From Sulfuriferula sp. (GTDB lineage: Bacteria > Pseudomonadota > Gammaproteobacteria > Burkholderiales > Sulfuriferulaceae): a stretch of 64,000 bases of DNA. This document shows, piece by piece, positions 19,947 through 29,888 of the stretch (its first letter is position 1; each line of letters starts with the position of its first letter). The notes beneath the pieces are model-generated. The model was not told where the DNA came from and did not search any database. It worked only from the letters and a program-made list of their open reading frames with translations. Made by a program: the position numbers and the translations under genes. The DNA lies in the NCBI GenBank assembly GCA_013140765.1, contig JABFSE010000016.1, positions 320 to 64,319 of the forward strand, in the 5' to 3' direction.

Positions 19947-20825
19947 TCATTTATCTCTCCACGCTTCAAGCGTAATAGCCAACTCAGTAAACGCACGAAT
20001 AGCTTTAATGCCTACGGGTAACTTAGTACGCGGCACACCCTGCCCTCCTACCCAAATATGAACAGACTCTGGCAATAGGTTGCGTAACTCAGTTAAGCTC
20101 TGTAAGAGCTGATTTTTAGGATAAGCCGCACTACACGATAAACATAAAATATCTGCCTGATGCGCCCTTACCGCAGCGTTGATTTCAACAACAGGGGTTT
20201 GTGCGCCTAAATTCACACAGCTCACCTGATTCAGTGCCAACAATGCCTCGCACATCAACCCGCCTAATGTATGCTCTTCACCAGGCAACGTCGTCAACAA
20301 CACGCTAGGTGCAACTACTTCAAAACCCATCTGACTAATCGCCGATCTTAGCAACGATATAACTTGCTCAGAATAAGCATGCTCCTCAAAAATAGCCAAA
20401 CGACCACGCATCCAAGCATCACCTATCTGCGTATTCATATTAGCAAGACTTTCTGTCACGAAACGCGCCAAACCCTGTTCGATAAGTAAGTTATTAAGGT
20501 AACGATGCAGATCAGCAGTGTGATGCTTTTTCAAAATAGCGATAATTTCAGCATCATTTTCAATACTGACATCTTGGACATTTAGCATCAATGATAAAGC
20601 ACTCATATCCAACGCCATCAACTTACCAGGTCTATGTCCTTGATTCATTAGCCGCTGTACCAGACGTAGCTTCTCCAACTCCATTTGTGAATATAAACGC
20701 TCGCCATGCACATCACGTATGGGTGTTGGAAAGCCGTAGCGACGCTCCCACACGCGCAAAGTGTCCTTACCAACACCCGTATCACGCTCAACGGCGGCTA
20801 TATTAAAGTATGTGTTTTTTTCCAT
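19947..20825 (-). CDS. MerR-HTH plus cobalamin-binding regulator (CarH/LitR-type photoreceptor)
   Basis: LRVWERRYG HTH, W-x9-EH (WMRGRLAIFEEH), E-x-H-x2-G (EEHTLG), LSCS and VGG of the B12 Rossmann domain. Confidence 0.9.
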   Translation of the reverse strand: MEKNTYFNIAAVERDTGVGKDTLRVWERRYGFPTPIRDVHGERLYSQMELEKLRLVQRLMNQGHRPGKLMALDMSALSLMLNVQDVSIENDAEIIAILKKHHTADLHRYLNNLLIEQGLARFVTESLANMNTQIGDAWMRGRLAIFEEHAYSEQVISLLRSAISQMGFEVVAPSVLLTTLPGEEHTLGGLMCEALLALNQVSCVNLGAQTPVVEINAAVRAHQADILCLSCSAAYPKNQLLQSLTELRNLLPESVHIWVGGQGVPRTKLPVGIKAIRAFTELAITLEAWRDK

Positions 20826-20844: not shown

Positions 20845-20860
20845 TTTTGTCCTAGACAAA
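20845..20860. promoter_or_regulatory. Palindromic operator candidate, site 1
   Basis: TTTTGTCCTAGACAAA, identical to 28627-28642. Confidence 0.75.
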
Positions 20861-20862
20861 TG

Positions 20863-20891
20863 TTGACACCCGTTAATAATTAACCTATTTT
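20863..20891 (+). promoter_or_regulatory. Candidate sigma70 promoter for the gpx-led operon
   Basis: TTGACA (20863-68)-17 nt-TATTTT (20886-91). The -10 is weak. Confidence 0.5.
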
Positions 20892-20908
20892 TAACACATA
20901 CACATCAC

Positions 20909-20923
20909 TTTGACCAAGACAAA
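20909..20923. promoter_or_regulatory. Operator variant, site 2
   Basis: TTTGACCAAGACAAA, 13/15 match to the palindrome core, 2 nt before the gpx ATG. Confidence 0.55.
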
Positions 20924-20925
20924 TC

Positions 20926-21480
20926 ATGAATAGAACCCTAATTGTCGCAACACTCATCAGCGCACTCTACGCACTCCCCAGCATTGCCGCGCCCACTTGC
21001 CCAAAAATTCTCGATTACCGAGTGAATACATTGCAAGAACAAGCTATTGATTTATGTAGCTACGCTGGCAAAGTAGTCGTCGTGGTCAACACAGCCAGCT
21101 ATTGCGGCAATACCCACCAATATGCAGGCTTAGAAGCCTTATATCGCAAAGAAAAAGCGAACGGACTTGTTATTTTAGGATTTCCATCTAACGATTTTGG
21201 TGGGCAAGAGCCGGGCAGTAACAAAGAAATAGCCAAATTTTGCCGCCTGACTTATAGCGTAGCGTTTCCTATGTTTGAAAAATCAGGCGTAACCGCAAAT
21301 AACGCCAATCCGCTATTTAAGCAACTCATTACTATTACGGGACACGCGCCACGATGGAATTTCCACAAATACTTGATTAACCGCAATGGTAATACCGTAA
21401 TTTCATTTGAAAATACGGTTGAACCTAGCGATCCAGAATTTATTAAACAAATCCAAACGATGCTCGCGCAAAAACCATGA
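20926..21480 (+). CDS. Glutathione peroxidase-family protein with signal peptide
   Basis: VVNTASYCG, LGFPSNDFGGQEPG, WNFHKYLI. Confidence 0.93.
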   Translation: MNRTLIVATLISALYALPSIAAPTCPKILDYRVNTLQEQAIDLCSYAGKVVVVVNTASYCGNTHQYAGLEALYRKEKANGLVILGFPSNDFGGQEPGSNKEIAKFCRLTYSVAFPMFEKSGVTANNANPLFKQLITITGHAPRWNFHKYLINRNGNTVISFENTVEPSDPEFIKQIQTMLAQKP

Positions 21481-22739
21481 GATCGATTGCGGTCATAGGC
21501 TCAGGAATTTCAGGGTTATCTGCCGCTTGGCTATTAACGCAGAAATATCATGTGACACTGTATGAAGCAGAAAATCGCCTAGGCGGCCATAGCCATAGCG
21601 TTGATGTATGTTTAGAGGGCAAAACAGCCGCTGTCGATACAGGATTTCTAGTTTGCAACGATCGCACTTATCCTAACTTACTCAACCTATTTGCATTATT
21701 AGGCGTTCCGCTCACCGCCAGTGACATGTCGTTTAGTGTGCAAGTAAGAGACGATAGATTAGCATGGGCTGGCACATCAATCGCCACCTTGTTTGCTGAC
21801 AAACGAAATTTATTACGTCCTGCTTTTTGGCGCATGATTAACGACATTTTGCGTTTCAACCGTCATGCAAGAGCCATCTTAAACCACCCGAATAACGCCG
21901 ACAGCCTAGCCGATTTCCTACACAAAAATCATTATAGCTCAGCGTTTAGCAACTGGTATTTGCTACCCATGGCAGCGGCTATTTGGTCGTGCCCAACACA
22001 ACAAATGCTTAGTTTTCCTGCACTTTCGTTCATTCATTTTTTAGAACAACATGGCTTACTACAAATAACTAATCGTCCACAATGGCTAACTGTCACAGGT
22101 GGCTCACGTCACTATGTACAACGCATTGCCGACACTATTACACATATTTATTTGTCTGAACCTGTACAGCAAATTGAGCGCACGGATAAGGGTGTCAAAA
22201 TCACTAGCCCAATGGGGGTTCGTAATTATGACGAAGTCGTCTTAGCAACACATAGCAACCAAAGTATGGCGATGCTCTGCGACATCAGCGCAGCAGAGTC
22301 ACGCATCCTAAGCGCGATTAAATATCAGCCTAATCATGCAGTCTTGCACACCGACAGCACTATCCTCCCTGCGCAAAAAATGTGGTCAGCATGGAATTTC
22401 CATACTGCTAACGCGTCTCCTGGTGCAACCCCAGTGAGCGTCACCTACTTAATTAACCAACTACAACCACTACCTTTTGACACCCCTGTGATGGTAACGC
22501 TCAACCCTGACACACCGATTGCCGCTGACAAAATCATCCGTAGTTTTGATTATAGCCATCCTATATTTGACCAACATGCTATCGCCGCACAACATCAACT
22601 TGCGCAAATCCAAGGACAACGACACACTTGGTTTTGTGGCGCATGGACAGGTTACGGCTTTCATGAAGACGGCTTAAAATCAGGTATGGCGGTTGCGCAA
22701 GGCTTAGGTGTGTCTATTCCTTGGTTAACGCAACTATGA
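21477..22739 (+). CDS. FAD-dependent amine-oxidase-like oxidoreductase (UfaD-like fatty acid desaturase family)
   Basis: IGSGISGL, EAENRLGGHS, VDTGFLVCNDRTYPNL, WFCGAWTGYGFHEDGLKSG. Confidence 0.85.
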   Translation: MRSIAVIGSGISGLSAAWLLTQKYHVTLYEAENRLGGHSHSVDVCLEGKTAAVDTGFLVCNDRTYPNLLNLFALLGVPLTASDMSFSVQVRDDRLAWAGTSIATLFADKRNLLRPAFWRMINDILRFNRHARAILNHPNNADSLADFLHKNHYSSAFSNWYLLPMAAAIWSCPTQQMLSFPALSFIHFLEQHGLLQITNRPQWLTVTGGSRHYVQRIADTITHIYLSEPVQQIERTDKGVKITSPMGVRNYDEVVLATHSNQSMAMLCDISAAESRILSAIKYQPNHAVLHTDSTILPAQKMWSAWNFHTANASPGATPVSVTYLINQLQPLPFDTPVMVTLNPDTPIAADKIIRSFDYSHPIFDQHAIAAQHQLAQIQGQRHTWFCGAWTGYGFHEDGLKSGMAVAQGLGVSIPWLTQL

Positions 22740-23494
22740 AACCAGAAATCTGCATCGGTCATATCATGCACCGCAGGCATTTACCTGTGGTGCATCAATT
22801 CACTTATCCAACTTATTTTTTGCGCTTCGCTATTGATGATATTAGCCAACTAAAAAACCGCTGGCTATCAATAGATAGTTGGAATTTATTCAGCTTTTAT
22901 CACCGCGATCATGGTGCACGTGATGGTAGCAACCTTGCTATTTGGATACGTCAATTACTCAATGAAAATCACATCCAAAAAGCGAACGGCAAGATTATTC
23001 TACATACCTACCCTCGCATTTTAGGCTATGTATTCAATCCCGTTAGCTTTTGGTTTTGTCATGATACCGAGGGTAATGTGCGTGCAATTTTATGCGAAGT
23101 GAACAACACTTTTAACGAACATCATAGCTACTTGTTAGCGCATGAAGATGAACGTCCGATTGCTGAAAGCGACTGGTTGGCGTGCCGCAAACAATTTCAC
23201 GTATCACCCTTTTTTGCAGTTGATGGTAGCTATCAGTTTCGCTTTCGCTGGACAGGCAATCATTGTCAATTCCAAATCGATCATCACCAACACAGCAATA
23301 AACTCTTAAGCACCACGCTCTCAGGCAACAAGCAGGTATTGACAGCAAAAATACTGATGAAATTATTTTTTACACACGCCTGGATGACATTTGCCGTCAT
23401 TGCCCGCATACATTTACAAGCCTGGCAGATATGGCGCAAAGGGGTGAAATTTCATACCAAACCCACCCCACCAGATAAGGAAATAAGCCGATGA
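22736..23494 (+). CDS. DUF1365 family protein (UfaO-like)
   Basis: GHIMHRR...HQFTY, PRILGYVFNPVSFWFC, EVNNTF, KQFHVSPF, IHLQAWQIWRKG. ATG overlaps the upstream stop. Confidence 0.88.
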   Translation: MKPEICIGHIMHRRHLPVVHQFTYPTYFLRFAIDDISQLKNRWLSIDSWNLFSFYHRDHGARDGSNLAIWIRQLLNENHIQKANGKIILHTYPRILGYVFNPVSFWFCHDTEGNVRAILCEVNNTFNEHHSYLLAHEDERPIAESDWLACRKQFHVSPFFAVDGSYQFRFRWTGNHCQFQIDHHQHSNKLLSTTLSGNKQVLTAKILMKLFFTHAWMTFAVIARIHLQAWQIWRKGVKFHTKPTPPDKEISR

Positions 23495-24714
23495 GCTGCC
23501 CCACAGTGAGCAACACACCTGTAGCATTAAACACACTACCTCGACCTGCACGCATCTTCATAAAACTCTTAGCAGGTATTAAAACAGGGCATCTGACGTT
23601 ACATATGCCAGATGGCAAGCATATTGCATTTGGTGATACTCAAGATCCGCTGCACGCCAATCTGCATCTCAATGACTGGGGCGTGTGCCAAGACATACTT
23701 ACCAGTAGCGATATTGGCTTGGGCGAAAGCTACATTGCTGGACGCTGGTTTAGCAACGACATCCCCGCACTCATTAGCATTGCCATTTACAATAGGAATA
23801 GCTTGGCGCGCGTCATGCGCGGGAATTTATTGAGCCTATTGATTTACCAAATCAAACACAAACTACGCGCCAACACCAAAACGGGAAGTCGTAAAAACAT
23901 ACTCGCGCACTACGATGTAGGTAATGATTTTTATCGACTGTGGCTGGATCGCAGCATGACCTATTCATCCGCCTTATTTGCAGGCGACCGCAAACTTAGC
24001 TTAATTGACGCACAACAAGCAAAATATCAACGAATACTGACACAACTCGATTGCAAACCGTTTCAGTCAGTTCTGGAAATTGGTTGTGGCTGGGGTGGTT
24101 TTGCCGAAATAGCCGCAAATAACCATATTGTTGTGCATGGTGTCACGCTCTCACCCAGTCAACTAGCCTACGCCCAAAGCCGCACGGCACATTACCACGA
24201 GGCGGTTCGTCCCAAACTTAGTTTAACGGATTACCGTGATATACACGGGCAGTTTGATCATATTGTCTCCATAGAAATGTTTGAAGCCGTGGGGGAGCGT
24301 TATTGGTCAGATTACTTTAAGGCCATCAAACGCTTACTCCGACCTCAAGGTAGCGCAGTCGTGCAAACGATTACCATAGCAGATACGCTTTTTAGTCGCT
24401 ATCGACGTAGCACCGACTTTATTCAACAATATGTTTTCCCTGGCGGAATGCTTCCCTCCCTGTCTGTTTTCAAAACCAAGGCCGCTCAGGCTGGACTAAA
24501 AGTCATTGACGCCTATTCATTTGGACTCGACTACGCCGAAACGCTTAAACGCTGGCGAATCGAGTTCCATCAAACCTGGGAACAAGCGCAACGCCAAGGA
24601 TTTGATCAACGTTTTTATCGGCTATGGGATTTTTATCTAGCCTACTGCGAAGCGGGTTTTACGGCGGGTGCAACTAGCGTTTACCAAATAAAACTTATTC
24701 ATGCCGAAAAATAA
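23491..24714 (+). CDS. cfa: Cyclopropane-fatty-acyl-phospholipid synthase family SAM methyltransferase (UfaM-like)
   Basis: NILAHYDVGNDFY, MTYSSA, LEIGCGWGG, SIEMFEAVG, FIQQYVFPGG, WDFYLAYCEAGF. Confidence 0.88.
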   Translation: MSCPTVSNTPVALNTLPRPARIFIKLLAGIKTGHLTLHMPDGKHIAFGDTQDPLHANLHLNDWGVCQDILTSSDIGLGESYIAGRWFSNDIPALISIAIYNRNSLARVMRGNLLSLLIYQIKHKLRANTKTGSRKNILAHYDVGNDFYRLWLDRSMTYSSALFAGDRKLSLIDAQQAKYQRILTQLDCKPFQSVLEIGCGWGGFAEIAANNHIVVHGVTLSPSQLAYAQSRTAHYHEAVRPKLSLTDYRDIHGQFDHIVSIEMFEAVGERYWSDYFKAIKRLLRPQGSAVVQTITIADTLFSRYRRSTDFIQQYVFPGGMLPSLSVFKTKAAQAGLKVIDAYSFGLDYAETLKRWRIEFHQTWEQAQRQGFDQRFYRLWDFYLAYCEAGFTAGATSVYQIKLIHAEK

Positions 24715-24716
24715 TC

Positions 24717-25265
24717 ATGCCGAAAATCCTCCATTACGCCAACAACCTATTGATGATTGGTATTATTATGTTGCTACCTAGCTGCTCTAACACACCAGTC
24801 TCCGCATATCAAAATGAAACGCCCACCTTAGACTTGGCGCAATACTTTAATGGCAAAGTAGATGCTTGGGGCATGTTTCAAGACCGTTCCGGCAAAGTAA
24901 TCAAGCGTTTCCATGTTGTCATTGATGCGCACTGGCAAGGTAATGTGGGCACATTGGACGAACACTTCACCTGGTCAGACAACACCACCAGCCAACGTAT
25001 TTGGACTATCACTAAACTAGATAAACACCACTACCAAGGCACAGCCGCCGATGTAGTCGGAAACGCGCAAGGCGAGGCTTACGGTAACGCACTCCAATGG
25101 CGATATGTGCTACAGCTGCCTGTCGATGATAAAATTTACAACGTAAGCATTGACGACTGGATGTATCAGCTAGATGATTTATCGCTCATGAATCGCTCCA
25201 AAATGAGCAAATTTGGCTTTCATCTGGGCGACATCACGCTCTACTTCAAGAAACGTCCATCATGA
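24717..25265 (+). CDS. DUF3833 family lipoprotein
   Basis: Lipobox-like LLPSC, LDLAQYFNGKVDAWGMFQDRSG, AYGNALQW, DDWMY, KFGF. Confidence 0.82.
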   Translation: MPKILHYANNLLMIGIIMLLPSCSNTPVSAYQNETPTLDLAQYFNGKVDAWGMFQDRSGKVIKRFHVVIDAHWQGNVGTLDEHFTWSDNTTSQRIWTITKLDKHHYQGTAADVVGNAQGEAYGNALQWRYVLQLPVDDKIYNVSIDDWMYQLDDLSLMNRSKMSKFGFHLGDITLYFKKRPS

Positions 25266-26014
25266 GTTTGAACGCAAAAATAACCGACTGGCATGGTAAA
25301 GTCATCTGGATAACGGGCGCATCCACAGGTATAGGTGCGGCATTGGCGCGACAATTATTAAACATAGGTGCTATCGTAATTACCAGCTCACGCACAGCAA
25401 TAACGTTAACTCACGCGAATACTTACCACGTCACCTGCGACACAACTGAACTTGCCAGCCTCGCTCTCGCCACGCAAAAAATAAAATCTCAATTTGGTAC
25501 ACTTGATTTAATTATCGCCAATGCAGGCAATCATGCACCTATGCGTGCAGACGCCATTGATGCTAAATTAGCAGCCCAACTCGTTGACACTAATCTAACA
25601 GGAACAATCAACACCGTAGCCTGCGGATTAACACTATTAAAACCGACAGGCGGTATTGCTATCGTCGCCAGCGTCGCGGGCTATCGCGGACTACCGACAG
25701 GCTTAATTTACGGCGCAACCAAAGCCGCCTTAATTAACTTCACTGAAACGCTGTATTTAGATTTAGCCCCTAAAGGGCATCAAGTCTATTTAATTAACCC
25801 TGGCTTTGTCAAAACGCCGCTCACCGACAAAAATCCCTTTACCATGCCCGCACTGATTAGCCCAGACGAAGCAGCAAAAGCGATTATATTGGGAATGACG
25901 AAAGGTCAGTTTGAAATTCATTTTCCAAAACGCTTTACATGGTTTATGCAAGCACTACGCCATCTACCCTATAGTTGGTATTTCTGGTTAATTCACAAAG
26001 GAACAGGATTATGA
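25262..26014 (+). CDS. Short-chain dehydrogenase/reductase
   Basis: TGASTGIG, NAG, YGATK (YxxxK), PGFVKT. Confidence 0.9.
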   Translation: MSLNAKITDWHGKVIWITGASTGIGAALARQLLNIGAIVITSSRTAITLTHANTYHVTCDTTELASLALATQKIKSQFGTLDLIIANAGNHAPMRADAIDAKLAAQLVDTNLTGTINTVACGLTLLKPTGGIAIVASVAGYRGLPTGLIYGATKAALINFTETLYLDLAPKGHQVYLINPGFVKTPLTDKNPFTMPALISPDEAAKAIILGMTKGQFEIHFPKRFTWFMQALRHLPYSWYFWLIHKGTGL

Positions 26015-26439
26015 ATACCGAAACAATAAACAACTTGATTCATTACTATGAAAACCTTACCCCAGCCGAGGTAGAGAACATGGGCACTTATTACAGCGAC
26101 CTAAGCTATTTCCGCGACCCGTTTAATGAAGTGCACACACTCGCCGCCATACAAGCCATTTTTCGCAAAATGTATCAACAAGTTGACCAGCCCACATTCC
26201 ACATTCAGGATAAATACATGAGCGAACAGGCACTGATATTAACGTGGGACTTTTCTTTTAACTTAAAAATCCCAAGTCGCCCGAATAAACATATACACGG
26301 CTTGAGTCTATTGCGATTTGACGAATCAGGCAAAATAAACTATCACCGTGATTACTGGGATGCAGCCCAAGAACTCTATGAGCAACTACCTGGTATAGGC
26401 GGCATTTTCAGTCTAATGCGTAAAATCATCGCGCATTAA
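26011..26439 (+). CDS. NTF2/SnoaL-like protein
   Basis: YSDLSYFRDPFNEV...HRDYWD. ATG 26011 overlaps the SDR stop; AGGA RBS. Confidence 0.82.
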   Translation: MNTETINNLIHYYENLTPAEVENMGTYYSDLSYFRDPFNEVHTLAAIQAIFRKMYQQVDQPTFHIQDKYMSEQALILTWDFSFNLKIPSRPNKHIHGLSLLRFDESGKINYHRDYWDAAQELYEQLPGIGGIFSLMRKIIAH

Positions 26440-26454
26440 ACTGAGAACCGATAT

Positions 26455-26922
26455 TTAAGTTGCCTTAAACCAACTCAACAATGATTTTTGTGGCTTGTCA
26501 ACTGTAGCGGCATGTTGGATAACTTGCGCAATCTCTTGCACAAAAGCCTCAGCTTGGCTGGGTGTATAGTCATACGGCTGAAATAAACCCATTTCACTGT
26601 ACTTCGACACCAGTTCATTATTTACACCGCTAAACTTCACCTGCTCCATCGACCACGCGGGAAAAGCCCGTGCTGTTATTTCATTATAAGATGCCATCAT
26701 GCAACGACTATGGCGCTTATCCGCGAGTATCCGTAGGTAAGTTTTATTAACGGCTTTGCGTTCGCCTTCTAGGCATTGGAAAAAATGTCGATCCGAATAA
26801 ATCAACACCCCCGTTACATGTTGCGCATGATTATTAACTTTTGACGTTGCCAAAATTTGGAAAATATCGTCGTCACTTAAATCTAAATTGCTGTAACTCA
26901 CATAACTTAATCTCACTAACAT
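26455..26922 (-). CDS. Stand-alone BLUF blue-light photoreceptor
   Basis: RLSYVS (Tyr), NN, VTGVLIY, FFQCLEG (Gln), DKRH, FPAWSM (Trp/Met). ATG 26922 after AAGGA. Confidence 0.92.
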   Translation of the reverse strand: MLVRLSYVSYSNLDLSDDDIFQILATSKVNNHAQHVTGVLIYSDRHFFQCLEGERKAVNKTYLRILADKRHSRCMMASYNEITARAFPAWSMEQVKFSGVNNELVSKYSEMGLFQPYDYTPSQAEAFVQEIAQVIQHAATVDKPQKSLLSWFKAT

Positions 26923-26941
26923 TTCATTTCCTTTACAAACA

Positions 26942-28471
26942 TTACAAAAAACCAATCTTTTCACGCAGCGTTTGCGCACCATCGGTAATACGTTGTTTTT
27001 CTACCTCCGTCATTTTTTTAATGTGTTGGTAAACCATGCCTACTCGTGGGTTATGCGCAAGTAGCGTGCTATGTCTGATATGGAAATCCCAATATAACGC
27101 ATTGTATGGGCACGCCTTATCACCATGCCGTTGTGCTTTATCATAATGACAGCGACCGCAATAATCACTCATACGATGGATATACGCCGCACTCGATATA
27201 TAGGGTTTAGTCGCCAATAAGCCACCATCGGCGAACTGACTCATACCCAATGTATTTGGCAACTCTACCCATTCAAACGCATCTACATACACACCCAAAT
27301 ACCATTGATGTACTGCGACGGGTGATAAGCCACTCAATAGCGCAAAATTACCAATGACCATGAGCCGCTGTATATGGTGTGCATGGGCGTTCTGCAAACT
27401 GTCAGTCAAGGCATGATGCAGGCAAGCCATCTTCGTTTTGCCATCCCAAAACCAAGCAGGCAAATCAGCATGATGCTGAAAAAAATTGTGTTCGACATAC
27501 TGTGGCATTTTTGCCCAGTAAACACCACGCACATACTCACGCCATCCCAAAATTTGTCGAATATAGCCTTCCGCACTCGCAATACTCACCACACCTGCGC
27601 TATAGGCTAGGGCTACGCGCTCAACAACTTCTTGGGGCGTAATCATTTTTACATTAAGCGCAAAAGACAGTAACGAATGAAACAAACGTGCATGATTTTG
27701 GCTCATCGCATCCTGAAAATCTCCAAAATACGGCAAGCTATATTTAGTAAAATTATCTAACTGCACCAAGGCTTCTGCACGATTAACAGGCCAACGAAAA
27801 GCCGTCGCCTGCGGCTCACCAAACGAGCGCACCCCCGCGACAGTAATGGTGTGCCATAAAGCATCGTGATTGTGTATTGGTCGTCTGTCTAATGGCTCAA
27901 CTGGCGAGCCTGACCAGGCTTTTCGATTCGCCTTGTCATGGCTCCACATACCACCTATAGGCTTGTTTTCCTCGTCAAGCAACACACCATGAATACGCCG
28001 CATATGTTGATAAAAATCCGCCATCAACCATTTTTTGCGTTGCTTAAAAAACTGACCAACTTCATCACGCTGCGTATAAAAATGTGCGCTATCAACTTGC
28101 ACTACCTCACAACCAATTTGCTCACCTGCCCGCGCCATTTGTTCATCTAGCCGCCACTCGTCAGGTGATTGGTAGAGCAACAATTGCGCATCATGCGCTT
28201 GCACTAACATAGCTAAATTGCTGATTAGATTTTGCTGATTACGCACATCGTCAATTGCTAAATAATCAACCTCATGACCAGCCATGCGCAACTGATGAGC
28301 AAAATCACGCATCGCTGCAAAAATAGCAATAATTTTTTGCGCATGATGCAAAACATAATCCGTCTCTTGGCGCATCTCCATCATGACATATCTAATTGAC
28401 GGCGATTTCTCGTTAAACCAAGGATGTAGCGGATACAGCTGATCTCCCAGAATTAAGCGCAGTGTCGTCAT
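26942..28471 (-). CDS. Fe-S bacterial cryptochrome / (6-4) photolyase family (PhrB/CryB type)
   Basis: [32 protein letters not shown] and four Cys (MAC, YCGRC, ACP) fitting a 4Fe-4S cluster. Confidence 0.9.
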
Positions 28472-28614
28472 ATTGTTTGGCGAGGCTTAGCATGGCGGCA
28501 GCGTGTTGAACAGTACTTCACCTCGTCCCACGCGCGCGCCCACTTTTTACGCCAGGTAAAAGGCAATCCGCAACTAAGGCAGGTTTTTGTTGGTAGCGGT
28601 CGTGATTTTGTCAT
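28468..28614 (-). CDS. DUF2256 family small Cys-rich protein, 48 aa (absent from ORF track)
   Basis: Manual translation [48 protein letters not shown]. Its stop overlaps the photolyase ATG. Confidence 0.9.
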
Positions 28615-28626
28615 TTAACCATGCAA

Positions 28627-28643
28627 TTTTGTCCTAGACAAAA
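28627..28643. promoter_or_regulatory. Palindromic operator candidate, site 3
   Basis: TTTTGTC-CTA-GACAAAA, with 16 bp identical to site 1. Confidence 0.78.
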
Positions 28644-28663
28644 AACTATATCACTTACATAAT
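28635..28663 (+). promoter_or_regulatory. sigma70 promoter for SDR-DUF3429
   Basis: TAGACA (inside the operator)-17 nt-CATAAT. Confidence 0.6.
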
Positions 28664-28673
28664 CAGTTCTCAA
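28645..28673 (-). promoter_or_regulatory. sigma70 promoter for DUF2256-photolyase-BLUF
   Basis: Minus strand TTGAGA-17 nt-TATAGT. The predicted start site falls inside the operator. Confidence 0.65.
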
Positions 28674-28695: not shown

Positions 28696-29436
28696 ATGCC
28701 AAAAATTGCGTTAGTTACAGGGGCAACAGGCGGATTAGGTCAAGCTATCGCACACCAACTAAATGACGAAGATTGGTTGCTAGTGGTCACAAGCCGAGAT
28801 CAAGAAAAATTAACACAAACGTATGGCACCCAACACCTGCAAATTGTCGCAGACTGCTCAACCTATCAAGGTGCGCGCGATATTTTTGAAGCCACACGAG
28901 CCGCAGGACTCACACCCACCGCATTAGCACATTGCGTCGGCAACGTCAGACTGGGCGCGTTACATAGAATGTCAGAAAAGGACTTTAATGAATGCCTCAG
29001 CGCAAATCTAATCAGCGCGTTTCACACACTGGCGGCGTTTATCGGGCAATTACGCGAAGCCGATACACCAGGTTCGGCGGTATTAGTTTCATCCGCCGCT
29101 GCCCGCATCGGCACACCCAATCATGAAGCAGTTTCAGCCGCAAAAGCAGGCTTAGAAGGGCTGGTGCGTGGCAGTGCGGCAACGGCTGCGACCGCTGGCA
29201 TCCGTGTCAATGCAGTCGCACCTGGCATCATGGATAGCCCCGCCGCAAACAAGGTGCTGGCAAGTGCCAATGCGCGAATTGCCGCAGCCAACCAATATCC
29301 ACTCCCAGGCATAGGCAATACTAAAGAAGTGGCCGATTTGATGTGCTGGCTATTATCAGAAAACGCTGCCCGCGTCACAGGACAAACGTGGGCGATTGAT
29401 GCAGGTTTTTCAGTTATCAGACCACTTGTGAGGTAA
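28696..29436 (+). CDS. Atypical SDR-family oxidoreductase
   Basis: TGATGGLG, VSSAAA, PNHEAVSAAK (no catalytic Tyr), RVNAVAPG, VTGQ. Confidence 0.85.
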   Translation: MPKIALVTGATGGLGQAIAHQLNDEDWLLVVTSRDQEKLTQTYGTQHLQIVADCSTYQGARDIFEATRAAGLTPTALAHCVGNVRLGALHRMSEKDFNECLSANLISAFHTLAAFIGQLREADTPGSAVLVSSAAARIGTPNHEAVSAAKAGLEGLVRGSAATAATAGIRVNAVAPGIMDSPAANKVLASANARIAAANQYPLPGIGNTKEVADLMCWLLSENAARVTGQTWAIDAGFSVIRPLVR

Positions 29437-29441
29437 ACGCA

Positions 29442-29888
29442 ATGAGCGCACAAAATACAGCACCCACAGCCGTCAAATGGCTCAGTTATGGCGGGCTTAT
29501 TCCATTCATCGTACTAGCAACTGCGATAACGCTAAGTCATTATCATCATGCTATATTGGGTTATGCTTTAATGACTTATAGCGTCAGCATTTTGAGTTTT
29601 GTCGGTGCGTTACATTGGGGGTTTGCGATGAATACGCACACGCTTACGCCACTACAACGGAATTTATTATATACATGGAGCACAATACCTGCACTAATTG
29701 CCTGGCTTGCCACATTGTTACCGTTACACCTAGGGTTGATTTTATTACTGAGCACATTTCCAGTGCAATTCTGGCAAGACAAACTACTGAATGCGCATAT
29801 AGCACTCCCTGACTGGTACTTACACTTACGCCTGAGACTAACACTGATTGCCAGTTTGGCTCTATTTATTGCTACGCTAAAACTGTAA
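29442..29888 (+). CDS. DUF3429 family membrane protein
   Basis: LSYGGLIPF, YSVSILSFVGALHWG, PDWYLHLRLRLT. Confidence 0.8.
   Translation: MSAQNTAPTAVKWLSYGGLIPFIVLATAITLSHYHHAILGYALMTYSVSILSFVGALHWGFAMNTHTLTPLQRNLLYTWSTIPALIAWLATLLPLHLGLILLLSTFPVQFWQDKLLNAHIALPDWYLHLRLRLTLIASLALFIATLKL

Follow-up and report, generated by a model that had tools for sequence, protein, structure and literature searches.

Which protein reads a palindrome that occurs in two divergent control regions of one bacterial locus, and what might it control there? The locus belongs to a 64,000-nucleotide stretch of Sulfuriferula sp. (assembly GCA_013140765.1, contig JABFSE010000016.1, positions 320 to 64,319), the whole of which is called the window here. 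A search of the window found two exact copies of TTTTGTCCTAGACAAA, at 20845-20860 and 28627-28642, and a related site, CTTTGACCAAGACAAA, at 20908-20923, whose 15-base-pair (bp) core (20909-20923) matches the exact copies at 13 of 15 positions. It is likely that this palindrome, TTTGTC-YWR-GACAAA, is the operator of the adjacent CarH/LitR class I-like regulator and that it would act as a light-relieved repression site. The three candidate operators are as follows.

20845-20860 (core 20846-20860, TTTGTCCTAGACAAA): candidate operator O1, regulator-proximal, exact copy
20908-20923 (core 20909-20923, TTTGACCAAGACAAA): candidate operator O2, regulator-distal, 13/15 variant
28627-28642 (core 28628-28642): candidate operator O3, single site in the second divergent control region, exact copy

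All three sites are intergenic. O1 is located 20 bp upstream of the ATG of the regulator gene (20825), O2 ends 2 bp ahead of the ATG of a glutathione peroxidase gene (20926), and O3 is located 13 bp upstream of the ATG of a DUF2256 gene (28614) and 53 bp upstream of that of an SDR gene (28696). A previous reading of this DNA, made from the sequence only, had claimed identical 16-bp copies and a 13/15 variant, all of them intergenic and on or next to promoter elements; the copies and their intergenic positions were confirmed, and predicted promoter hexamers overlap or abut the sites in both control regions. With up to three mismatches allowed, the window contains four matches, the reverse-strand reading of the second exact copy included, compared with 0.53 expected from shuffled sequences, and no shuffle gave four. 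The identity between O1 and O3 is confined to the 16 bp and the flanks are unlike; therefore, the two do not belong to a duplicated segment.

The whole assembly (2.18 Mb in 40 contigs, 48.6% GC) was scanned with a position weight matrix (PWM) built from the sites upstream of orthologous regulators, and the three window sites took the first three ranks (scores of 24.2, 24.2 and 21.8; a separate scoring of O1 and O2 gave 24.4 and 22.2). The next-best match scores 17.3, and this match and all lower ones are inside long open reading frames (ORFs). Under the base composition of the genome, 0.28 sites scoring at least 20 and 0.014 sites scoring at least 24 are expected, and three and two, respectively, were seen; column-permuted matrices gave a mean of 0.23 sites in the genome. 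The exact TTTGTC-N3-GACAAA core is present only at the two window places. The motif is thus not frequent in unrelated or coding positions, which agrees with the operator proposed in the sequence-only reading. The same genome-wide scan gave no other site above chance that could indicate further regulon members.

The gene adjoining O1 encodes the putative reader of these sites.

19947-20825, minus strand: regulator gene, 292 amino acids, MerR-type winged helix and B12-binding domain (CarH/LitR class I-like)

Residues 8-64 of the regulator match Pfam MerR_1 (E 9e-12), and its DNA-binding domain aligns with those of CarH and CarA (PDB codes: 5C8D and 2JML). The Pfam B12-binding domain is matched with 33.3 bits against a cut-off of 32.1, and residues 5-264 align continuously with Thermus thermophilus CarH/LitR (PDB codes: 3WHP and 5C8D) with an E-value of 3e-27, in agreement with the C-terminal four-helix bundle and Rossmann-fold B12 module of class I LitR. 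CarH homologues are defined by the joint presence of Wx9EH, which caps the adenosyl group, and of the ExHxxG motif with the lower-axial His (PMC8156234). In the regulator, WMRGRLAIFEEH aligns with Wx9EH (W131/E141/H142 of T. thermophilus CarH) and GEEHTLG aligns with ExHxxG (lower-axial His, H177); Wx9EH and the lower-axial His are invariant among 51 orthologues. The residue after the Trp of Wx9EH is Met in the window regulator; 39 of the 51 orthologues have Met, Val or Ala there, and two have His. In Thermus CarH, the His at this position serves as the upper ligand once the bis-His photoproduct has formed (PMC8156234). Since this His is rare among the orthologues, the lit state of the subfamily may differ from that of Thermus CarH.

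The supply of adenosylcobalamin (AdoCbl) is plausible in this organism, since the genome carries both a cobalamin riboswitch (contig C19:16174-16357, outside the window) and, 2.7 kb downstream of it, a gene for a CobA/BtuR-type adenosyltransferase (C19:19042-19548). A PduO-type adenosyltransferase was searched for in the genome and not found. The C19 region looks like a B12 uptake or salvage locus.

Much of the evidence that connects the palindrome with the regulator comes from relatives. Homologues of the regulator are present in 143 of 401 sampled genomes of the order, in 4 of 27 genomes of the genus, and in about 9 of 398 other genomes of the class outside the order. The motif occurs upstream of orthologous regulators with 40-62% protein identity, in AT-rich as well as GC-rich genomes, and the same palindrome stands at six of the nine homologue-bearing loci from other orders. 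The consensus of the orthologous sites is TTTG(T/a)C-Y-W-R-G(A/t)CAAA, in which G4, C6, G10 and C12 are invariant. Motif discovery upstream of orthologous regulators, which the sequence-only reading had named as a check, thus returned the same palindrome across genera, families and orders. In the genus itself, all three genomes with a complete regulator contain the exact 13-mer TTGTCYWRGACAA, in each case adjoining the gene, and so do 2 of 23 genomes without one; a reversed control pattern gave similar or higher match rates everywhere in these genus genomes. In two distant high-GC relatives from the related-locus search, the motif is absent from the stretch examined.

In the first control region, O1 and O2 are paired, with 63 bp from the start of one core (20846) to the start of the other (20909), and the predicted promoter elements lie between or within them.

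20863-20893: predicted bidirectional promoter core, between O1 and O2
20863-20891, plus strand: predicted promoter from a consensus scan, -35 TTGACA at 20863-20868, 17-bp spacer, -10 TATTTT at 20886-20891
20917-20888, minus strand: putative promoter read by eye and by analogy with relatives, -35 TTGGTC at 20917-20912 inside O2, -10 TAAAAA at 20893-20888

O1 abuts the -35 of the rightward promoter. The predicted transcription starts are near 20898 on the plus strand and near 20881 on the minus strand. When pairs were searched upstream of the regulators, any spacing of 55-74 bp was permitted and the best pair was taken; among the 28 paired loci obtained, the spacing is 63 bp in 17 and 64 bp in 11, and no other distance occurs. 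In the aligned relatives, the distal site holds a conserved -35-like TAGTCA, which is followed after a 17-bp spacer by TAnAAT (+30/31 from the start of the distal site), and a bottom-strand TTGACA stands 2-4 bp from the proximal site in 23 of the 28 loci. Therefore, it appears that the divergent promoters share overlapping -10 hexamers, with starts about 17-18 bp apart. Judged by these predicted starts, each paired operator would cover or flank the -35 of one promoter and fall some 10-35 nucleotides (nt) downstream of the start of the other. The 63/64-bp pairing around a bidirectional promoter, which the sequence-only reading did not contain, is a more distinctive feature than the palindrome alone.

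The distance from TTGACA to the proximal site varies among the relatives (8, 9 or 10 bp, start to start) while the pair stays at 63/64 bp, and combinations that give 62 or 65 bp are not found among the 28 paired loci. Since one distance varies and the other holds, it is hinted that the repressor may set the spacing, beyond what promoter geometry alone would impose; the hint is weak because the loci are phylogenetically related. The TTGACA at 20863, 10 bp from the TAGACA at 20853, was also tried as a third direct repeat and rejected, as this distance is 10-12 bp in relatives. It is best read as a -35, because its phase varies in this way while the palindrome pair stays at 63/64 bp.

In many relatives, the start codon of the divergent gene is located 1-4 nt past the distal operator, and in their divergent mRNA the operator centre reads TAGGA at Shine-Dalgarno distance; the window centre reads CAAGA, a weak match (20908-20928). 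The distal operator may double as a ribosome-binding region.

The second control region contains O3 alone, and no partner is found at plus or minus 63 or 64 bp from it.

28635-28663, plus strand: predicted rightward promoter, TAGACA (inside O3), 17-bp spacer, CATAAT, 10 of 12 consensus matches
28673-28645, minus strand: predicted leftward promoter, TTGAGA, 17-bp spacer, TATAGT, with its predicted start inside O3

Here the right half of O3, TAGACA, is itself the -35 of the predicted promoter that faces the SDR gene. The starts predicted for this region are near 28670 (plus strand) and near 28638 (minus strand). The predicted targets of the two control regions, with gene identities from Pfam, are listed below.

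20926-26439, plus strand: predicted target operon 1, beginning with genes for glutathione peroxidase (gpx), an FAD amine-oxidase-like protein (UfaD-like) and a DUF1365 protein (UfaO-like), followed by a CFA-synthase-like methyltransferase, DUF3833, SDR and a SnoaL-like protein
26455-28614, minus strand: predicted target operon 2, with DUF2256 (28471-28614), the photolyase-related DPRP (26942-28471) and BLUF (26455-26982)
28696-29888, plus strand: predicted target unit 3, with SDR (28696-29436) and a DUF3429 membrane protein (29442-29888), downstream of the O3-overlapping promoter

The central genes of operon 1 mirror the furan-fatty-acid operon RSP1091-1087 of Rhodobacter sphaeroides. There, RSP1091 (UfaD) acts with RSP1090 (UfaO), a DUF1365 protein, to form a furan fatty acid, and singlet oxygen consumes this lipid (PMC7380195). 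The whole operon, from gpx through the UfaD-like, DUF1365, CFAS, DUF3833 and SDR genes to the SnoaL-like gene, is also divergent from the regulator in a congener and in members of two other families (G021, G029 and G049), and in several relatives the DPRP gene stands directly behind the regulator gene. In the window, the BLUF ORF overlaps the end of the DPRP ORF by 41 nt (26942-26982) and the Pfam BLUF match starts at residue 22; the real start of BLUF is probably an internal Met near 26922. The nearest DPRP homologues (relatives L069-L097) sit in other families, and the gene is absent from the three congeners listed. The block formed by DUF2256-DPRP-BLUF and SDR-DUF3429 may be an acquired module that was recruited to the regulon by a consensus copy of the operator.

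A proposed mode of action of the regulator can be described as follows. We infer binding and repression, their dependence on B12 and light, the chromophore, the oligomeric state and the transcription starts; the mechanism of dark repression and light release is taken from the CarH literature (PMC8156234, PMC9304148). In the dark, the AdoCbl-loaded protein would oligomerise and occupy O1, O2 and O3. With centres 63 bp apart, or about six helical turns, O1 and O2 would bracket a compact bidirectional promoter with overlapping -10 hexamers, each site covering or abutting the -35 of one promoter and lying in the early transcribed region of the other, and by this placement both the regulator gene and the divergent gpx/furan-fatty-acid-like operon would be off. 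O3 alone would cover the -35 of SDR-DUF3429 and the start region of the promoter of DUF2256, the photolyase-related gene and BLUF. Occupancy in the dark would thus block RNA polymerase at four promoters. Near-ultraviolet to green light would cleave the Co-C bond, upon which the oligomer would dissociate, the sites would be vacated and the four units would be turned on. The expected output would be the protection of lipids and defence against peroxide by gpx and the furan-fatty-acid-type enzymes, the photolyase-related DPRP, presumably for DNA photorepair, BLUF as a second photoreceptor, and the repressor itself, which would result in negative autoregulation.

Several points weigh against the assignment of the palindrome to this regulator as a light-relieved repression site. 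The CarH tetramer of T. thermophilus has adjacent DNA-binding domains that face away from one another and read direct repeats (PMC8156234), and here two winged-helix domains would have to fit a 15-bp inverted repeat whose ACA cores are only 8 bp apart. The regulator scores 122.5 bits against a cut-off of 400 for the NCBIfam CarH equivalog NF052513 (TransRegCarH); therefore, it represents a related but separate subfamily. The consensus scan missed the minus-strand promoter of the first control region, which was assigned by comparison with relatives. In the closest homologues of the photolyase-related gene (50-61% identity), the motif is missing upstream, so that O3 is lineage-specific.

One tentative answer to the question of fit, which we hold to be possible but doubtful, is an undescribed binding mode in which two domains read the 15-bp inverted repeat and an AdoCbl-dependent tetramer bridges repeats 63/64 bp (six turns) apart, clamping or looping the bidirectional promoter. 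The collapse of the tetramer in the light would free both promoters, and the distal site would have two further roles, one as the -35 from which the regulator gene is transcribed and the other as a ribosome-binding region (TAGGA) for the divergent gene. Bridging of two palindrome-bound units is suggested because the spacing is fixed at six turns.

The regulator might also bind the same sites and work as a classical MerR-type activator that distorts its promoter. Its N-terminal domain is MerR-type, and typical MerR proteins bind palindromes or pseudopalindromes as dimers (PMC8156234). However, MerR activators sit between over-spaced -35 and -10 hexamers (PMC12825309), whereas the window sites are on or beside a -35 or downstream of a start and the predicted spacers have the optimal 16-18 bp. 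Since the characterised CarH/LitR members are, in addition, all repressors (PMC9758184, PMC8156234), activation of this kind appears unlikely.

It is also improbable that the palindrome is the site of another factor, such as a BLUF partner or a general oxidative-stress regulator, with the CarH-like neighbour being coincidental. The link between protein and site is drawn from sequence comparison, and O3 would control an operon that encodes a BLUF photoreceptor, both of which leave room for such a factor. The motif nevertheless accompanies the regulator gene in different orders, at low and high GC content and with varied neighbours (e.g. a PAS/MCP-like gene in G009); in the genus genomes without the regulator, its frequency does not exceed chance, and BLUF is absent from most motif-bearing loci.

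A third alternative takes the element as an RNA hairpin in 5' leaders, with a role in stability, attenuation or processing. O2 and O1 would indeed fall close behind the predicted starts of the divergent transcripts, and a 6-bp stem is possible; however, the hairpin is weak (-3.4 kcal/mol, a stability matched by 10 of 200 shuffles) and O3 is upstream of the rightward start. Compensatory changes number zero among 57 orthologous sites, in 23 of which the pair 5-11 is T.T. Therefore, the element appears to be conserved as DNA sequence and not as RNA structure, and the hairpin was rejected as very unlikely on account of its low stability and the lack of covariation in the 57 sites. That the copies are a chance repeat or a functionless remnant of duplicated or mobile sequence is hardly credible, for nothing but their small number speaks for it, and two sites were seen against 0.014 expected, both within 8 kb of the regulator, with unrelated flanks and a motif conserved across orders.

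With the palindrome taken as the probable operator of the CarH/LitR-like regulator, the system can be compared with those already described. Characterised CarH operators consist of three or four contiguous tandem 11-bp direct repeats, nAnnTnnACAn (PMC9304148, PMC8156234). The window regulator shares with CarH, or class I LitR, of T. thermophilus and Bacillus megaterium (PDB codes: 5C8D/5C8E/5C8F and 3WHP) the two-domain build, Wx9EH and the lower-axial His; the operator likewise overlaps a -35, its half-site keeps the ACA core (TAGACA = TnnACA), and repression in the dark would be expected. Unlike these systems, the window has a 15-bp inverted repeat, which in relatives usually occurs as two copies 63/64 bp apart, and tandem 11-bp direct repeats are not found, the neighbouring TTGACA standing at a variable phase of 10-12 bp. 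The predicted targets are lipid, peroxidase and photolyase genes instead of the carotenoid genes of characterised CarH systems, and Met, not the His of Thermus CarH, follows the Trp of Wx9EH.

Class II LitR of Pseudomonas (P. putida PplR1 and P. mendocina PmlR2) represses photolyase, furan-fatty-acid (ufaM) and related light-inducible genes from a pair of sites at each promoter, the first covering the -35 and the second located between start and ATG, with the operator T(G/A)TACA-N12-TGTA(C/T)A (PMC9758184). O1 and O2 show the same two-site geometry. However, class II LitR has a four-helix bundle only, without the Rossmann B12 domain or its His, and a LOV partner, whereas the window regulator keeps the complete B12 signature, and its sites read TTTGTC-YWR-GACAAA. 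The carB promoter of Myxococcus xanthus has a bipartite CarA/CarH operator that is bound cooperatively by two dimers; it was initially taken for inverted repeats that overlap the -35 (PMC9304148). Both of its sites fit into about 55 bp, side by side or with some overlap, and the current reading is one of tandem 11-bp repeats, in contrast to the window palindromes six turns apart. In the symmetric bidirectional promoters of Warman and Grainger, opposite-strand -10 hexamers overlap between two flanking -35 hexamers, and starts about 17-18 bp apart form the commonest class; among the known cases is acrR/acrAB, where the gene of a local repressor shares such a promoter with the operon that it controls (PMC12825309). 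The window promoter resembles these in its overlapping -10 hexamers and its inferred starts about 17-18 bp apart, but differs in that both flanks carry an operator for one photoreceptor-type repressor and in that the module is conserved across orders.

The closest functional relative may be PhrR of Halomonas sp. HL-48, which Romine et al. in 2017 are said to have described as a MerR-type, B12-binding, light-sensitive regulator; its targets in Proteobacteria are reportedly genes for photolyase, folate and ubiquinone together with cfa-type genes, and comparative genomics is said to have been used to predict its operators. The gene content of the window locus and its relatives is compatible with such a regulon. 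The PhrR study may already contain the TTTGTC-YWR-GACAAA motif. No published description of the motif was found in a full-text literature search, whose coverage excluded PhrR and the class II/III LitR studies of 2017-2020. The sequence-only reading had called the element a previously undescribed operator architecture for a CarH-family protein. The operator assignment gains support from the co-occurrence of motif and regulator across genera, families and orders, and the mirror-image arrangement of the palindrome is unlike the tandem 11-bp repeats known from characterised CarH (PMC9304148, PMC8156234). The novelty claimed for it is not established, as the motif is widespread and not peculiar to this genome, and inverted readings of CarA/CarH operators exist for Myxococcus. 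That the architecture is undescribed relative to the experimentally characterised members of the family is plausible.

Some observations in relatives concern the extent of the regulon. Eight extra motif sites were examined; four are inside genes and chance-like, and the remaining four, in high-GC DNA, are either intergenic or not clearly placed. Two intergenic consensus sites, L046 (G305:C256, site 3005) and L050 (G049:C1, site 2983), stand right after a TATAGT -10-like hexamer; one adjoins a second MerR-like ORF and a small secreted protein, and the other is upstream of a cyclic-nucleotide-binding-like protein. Both may be additional regulon members. In a congener (L055, G009:C2:174000-192000), a perfect 63-bp pair (sites 11776 and 11839) faces a gene of 555 amino acids, not the lipid operon, and the product begins like a PAS-domain chemoreceptor (PAS/MCP-like), which suggests that taxis could be light-controlled in that species. 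The regulator is patchy in the genus, although common in the order, which suggests that the light module as a whole has been lost repeatedly or transferred laterally.

CarH proteins constitute a distinct photoreceptor family and serve as components in optogenetics. To our knowledge, what is known of their DNA reading from structures and biochemistry comes entirely from the direct-repeat operators of Thermus, Bacillus and myxobacteria. The large proteobacterial branch to which the window regulator belongs is present in about a third of the sampled genomes of the order. In this branch, a short inverted repeat with a strictly phased second copy would widen the known range of operators, and a compact, well-defined operator/promoter module would be offered for testing. 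The operator would also mark a light regulon without carotenoid genes, composed of furan-fatty-acid-type lipid remodelling, gpx, DPRP with DUF2256 and BLUF, and SDR with DUF3429, in which several proteins of unknown function would gain a testable link to light damage.

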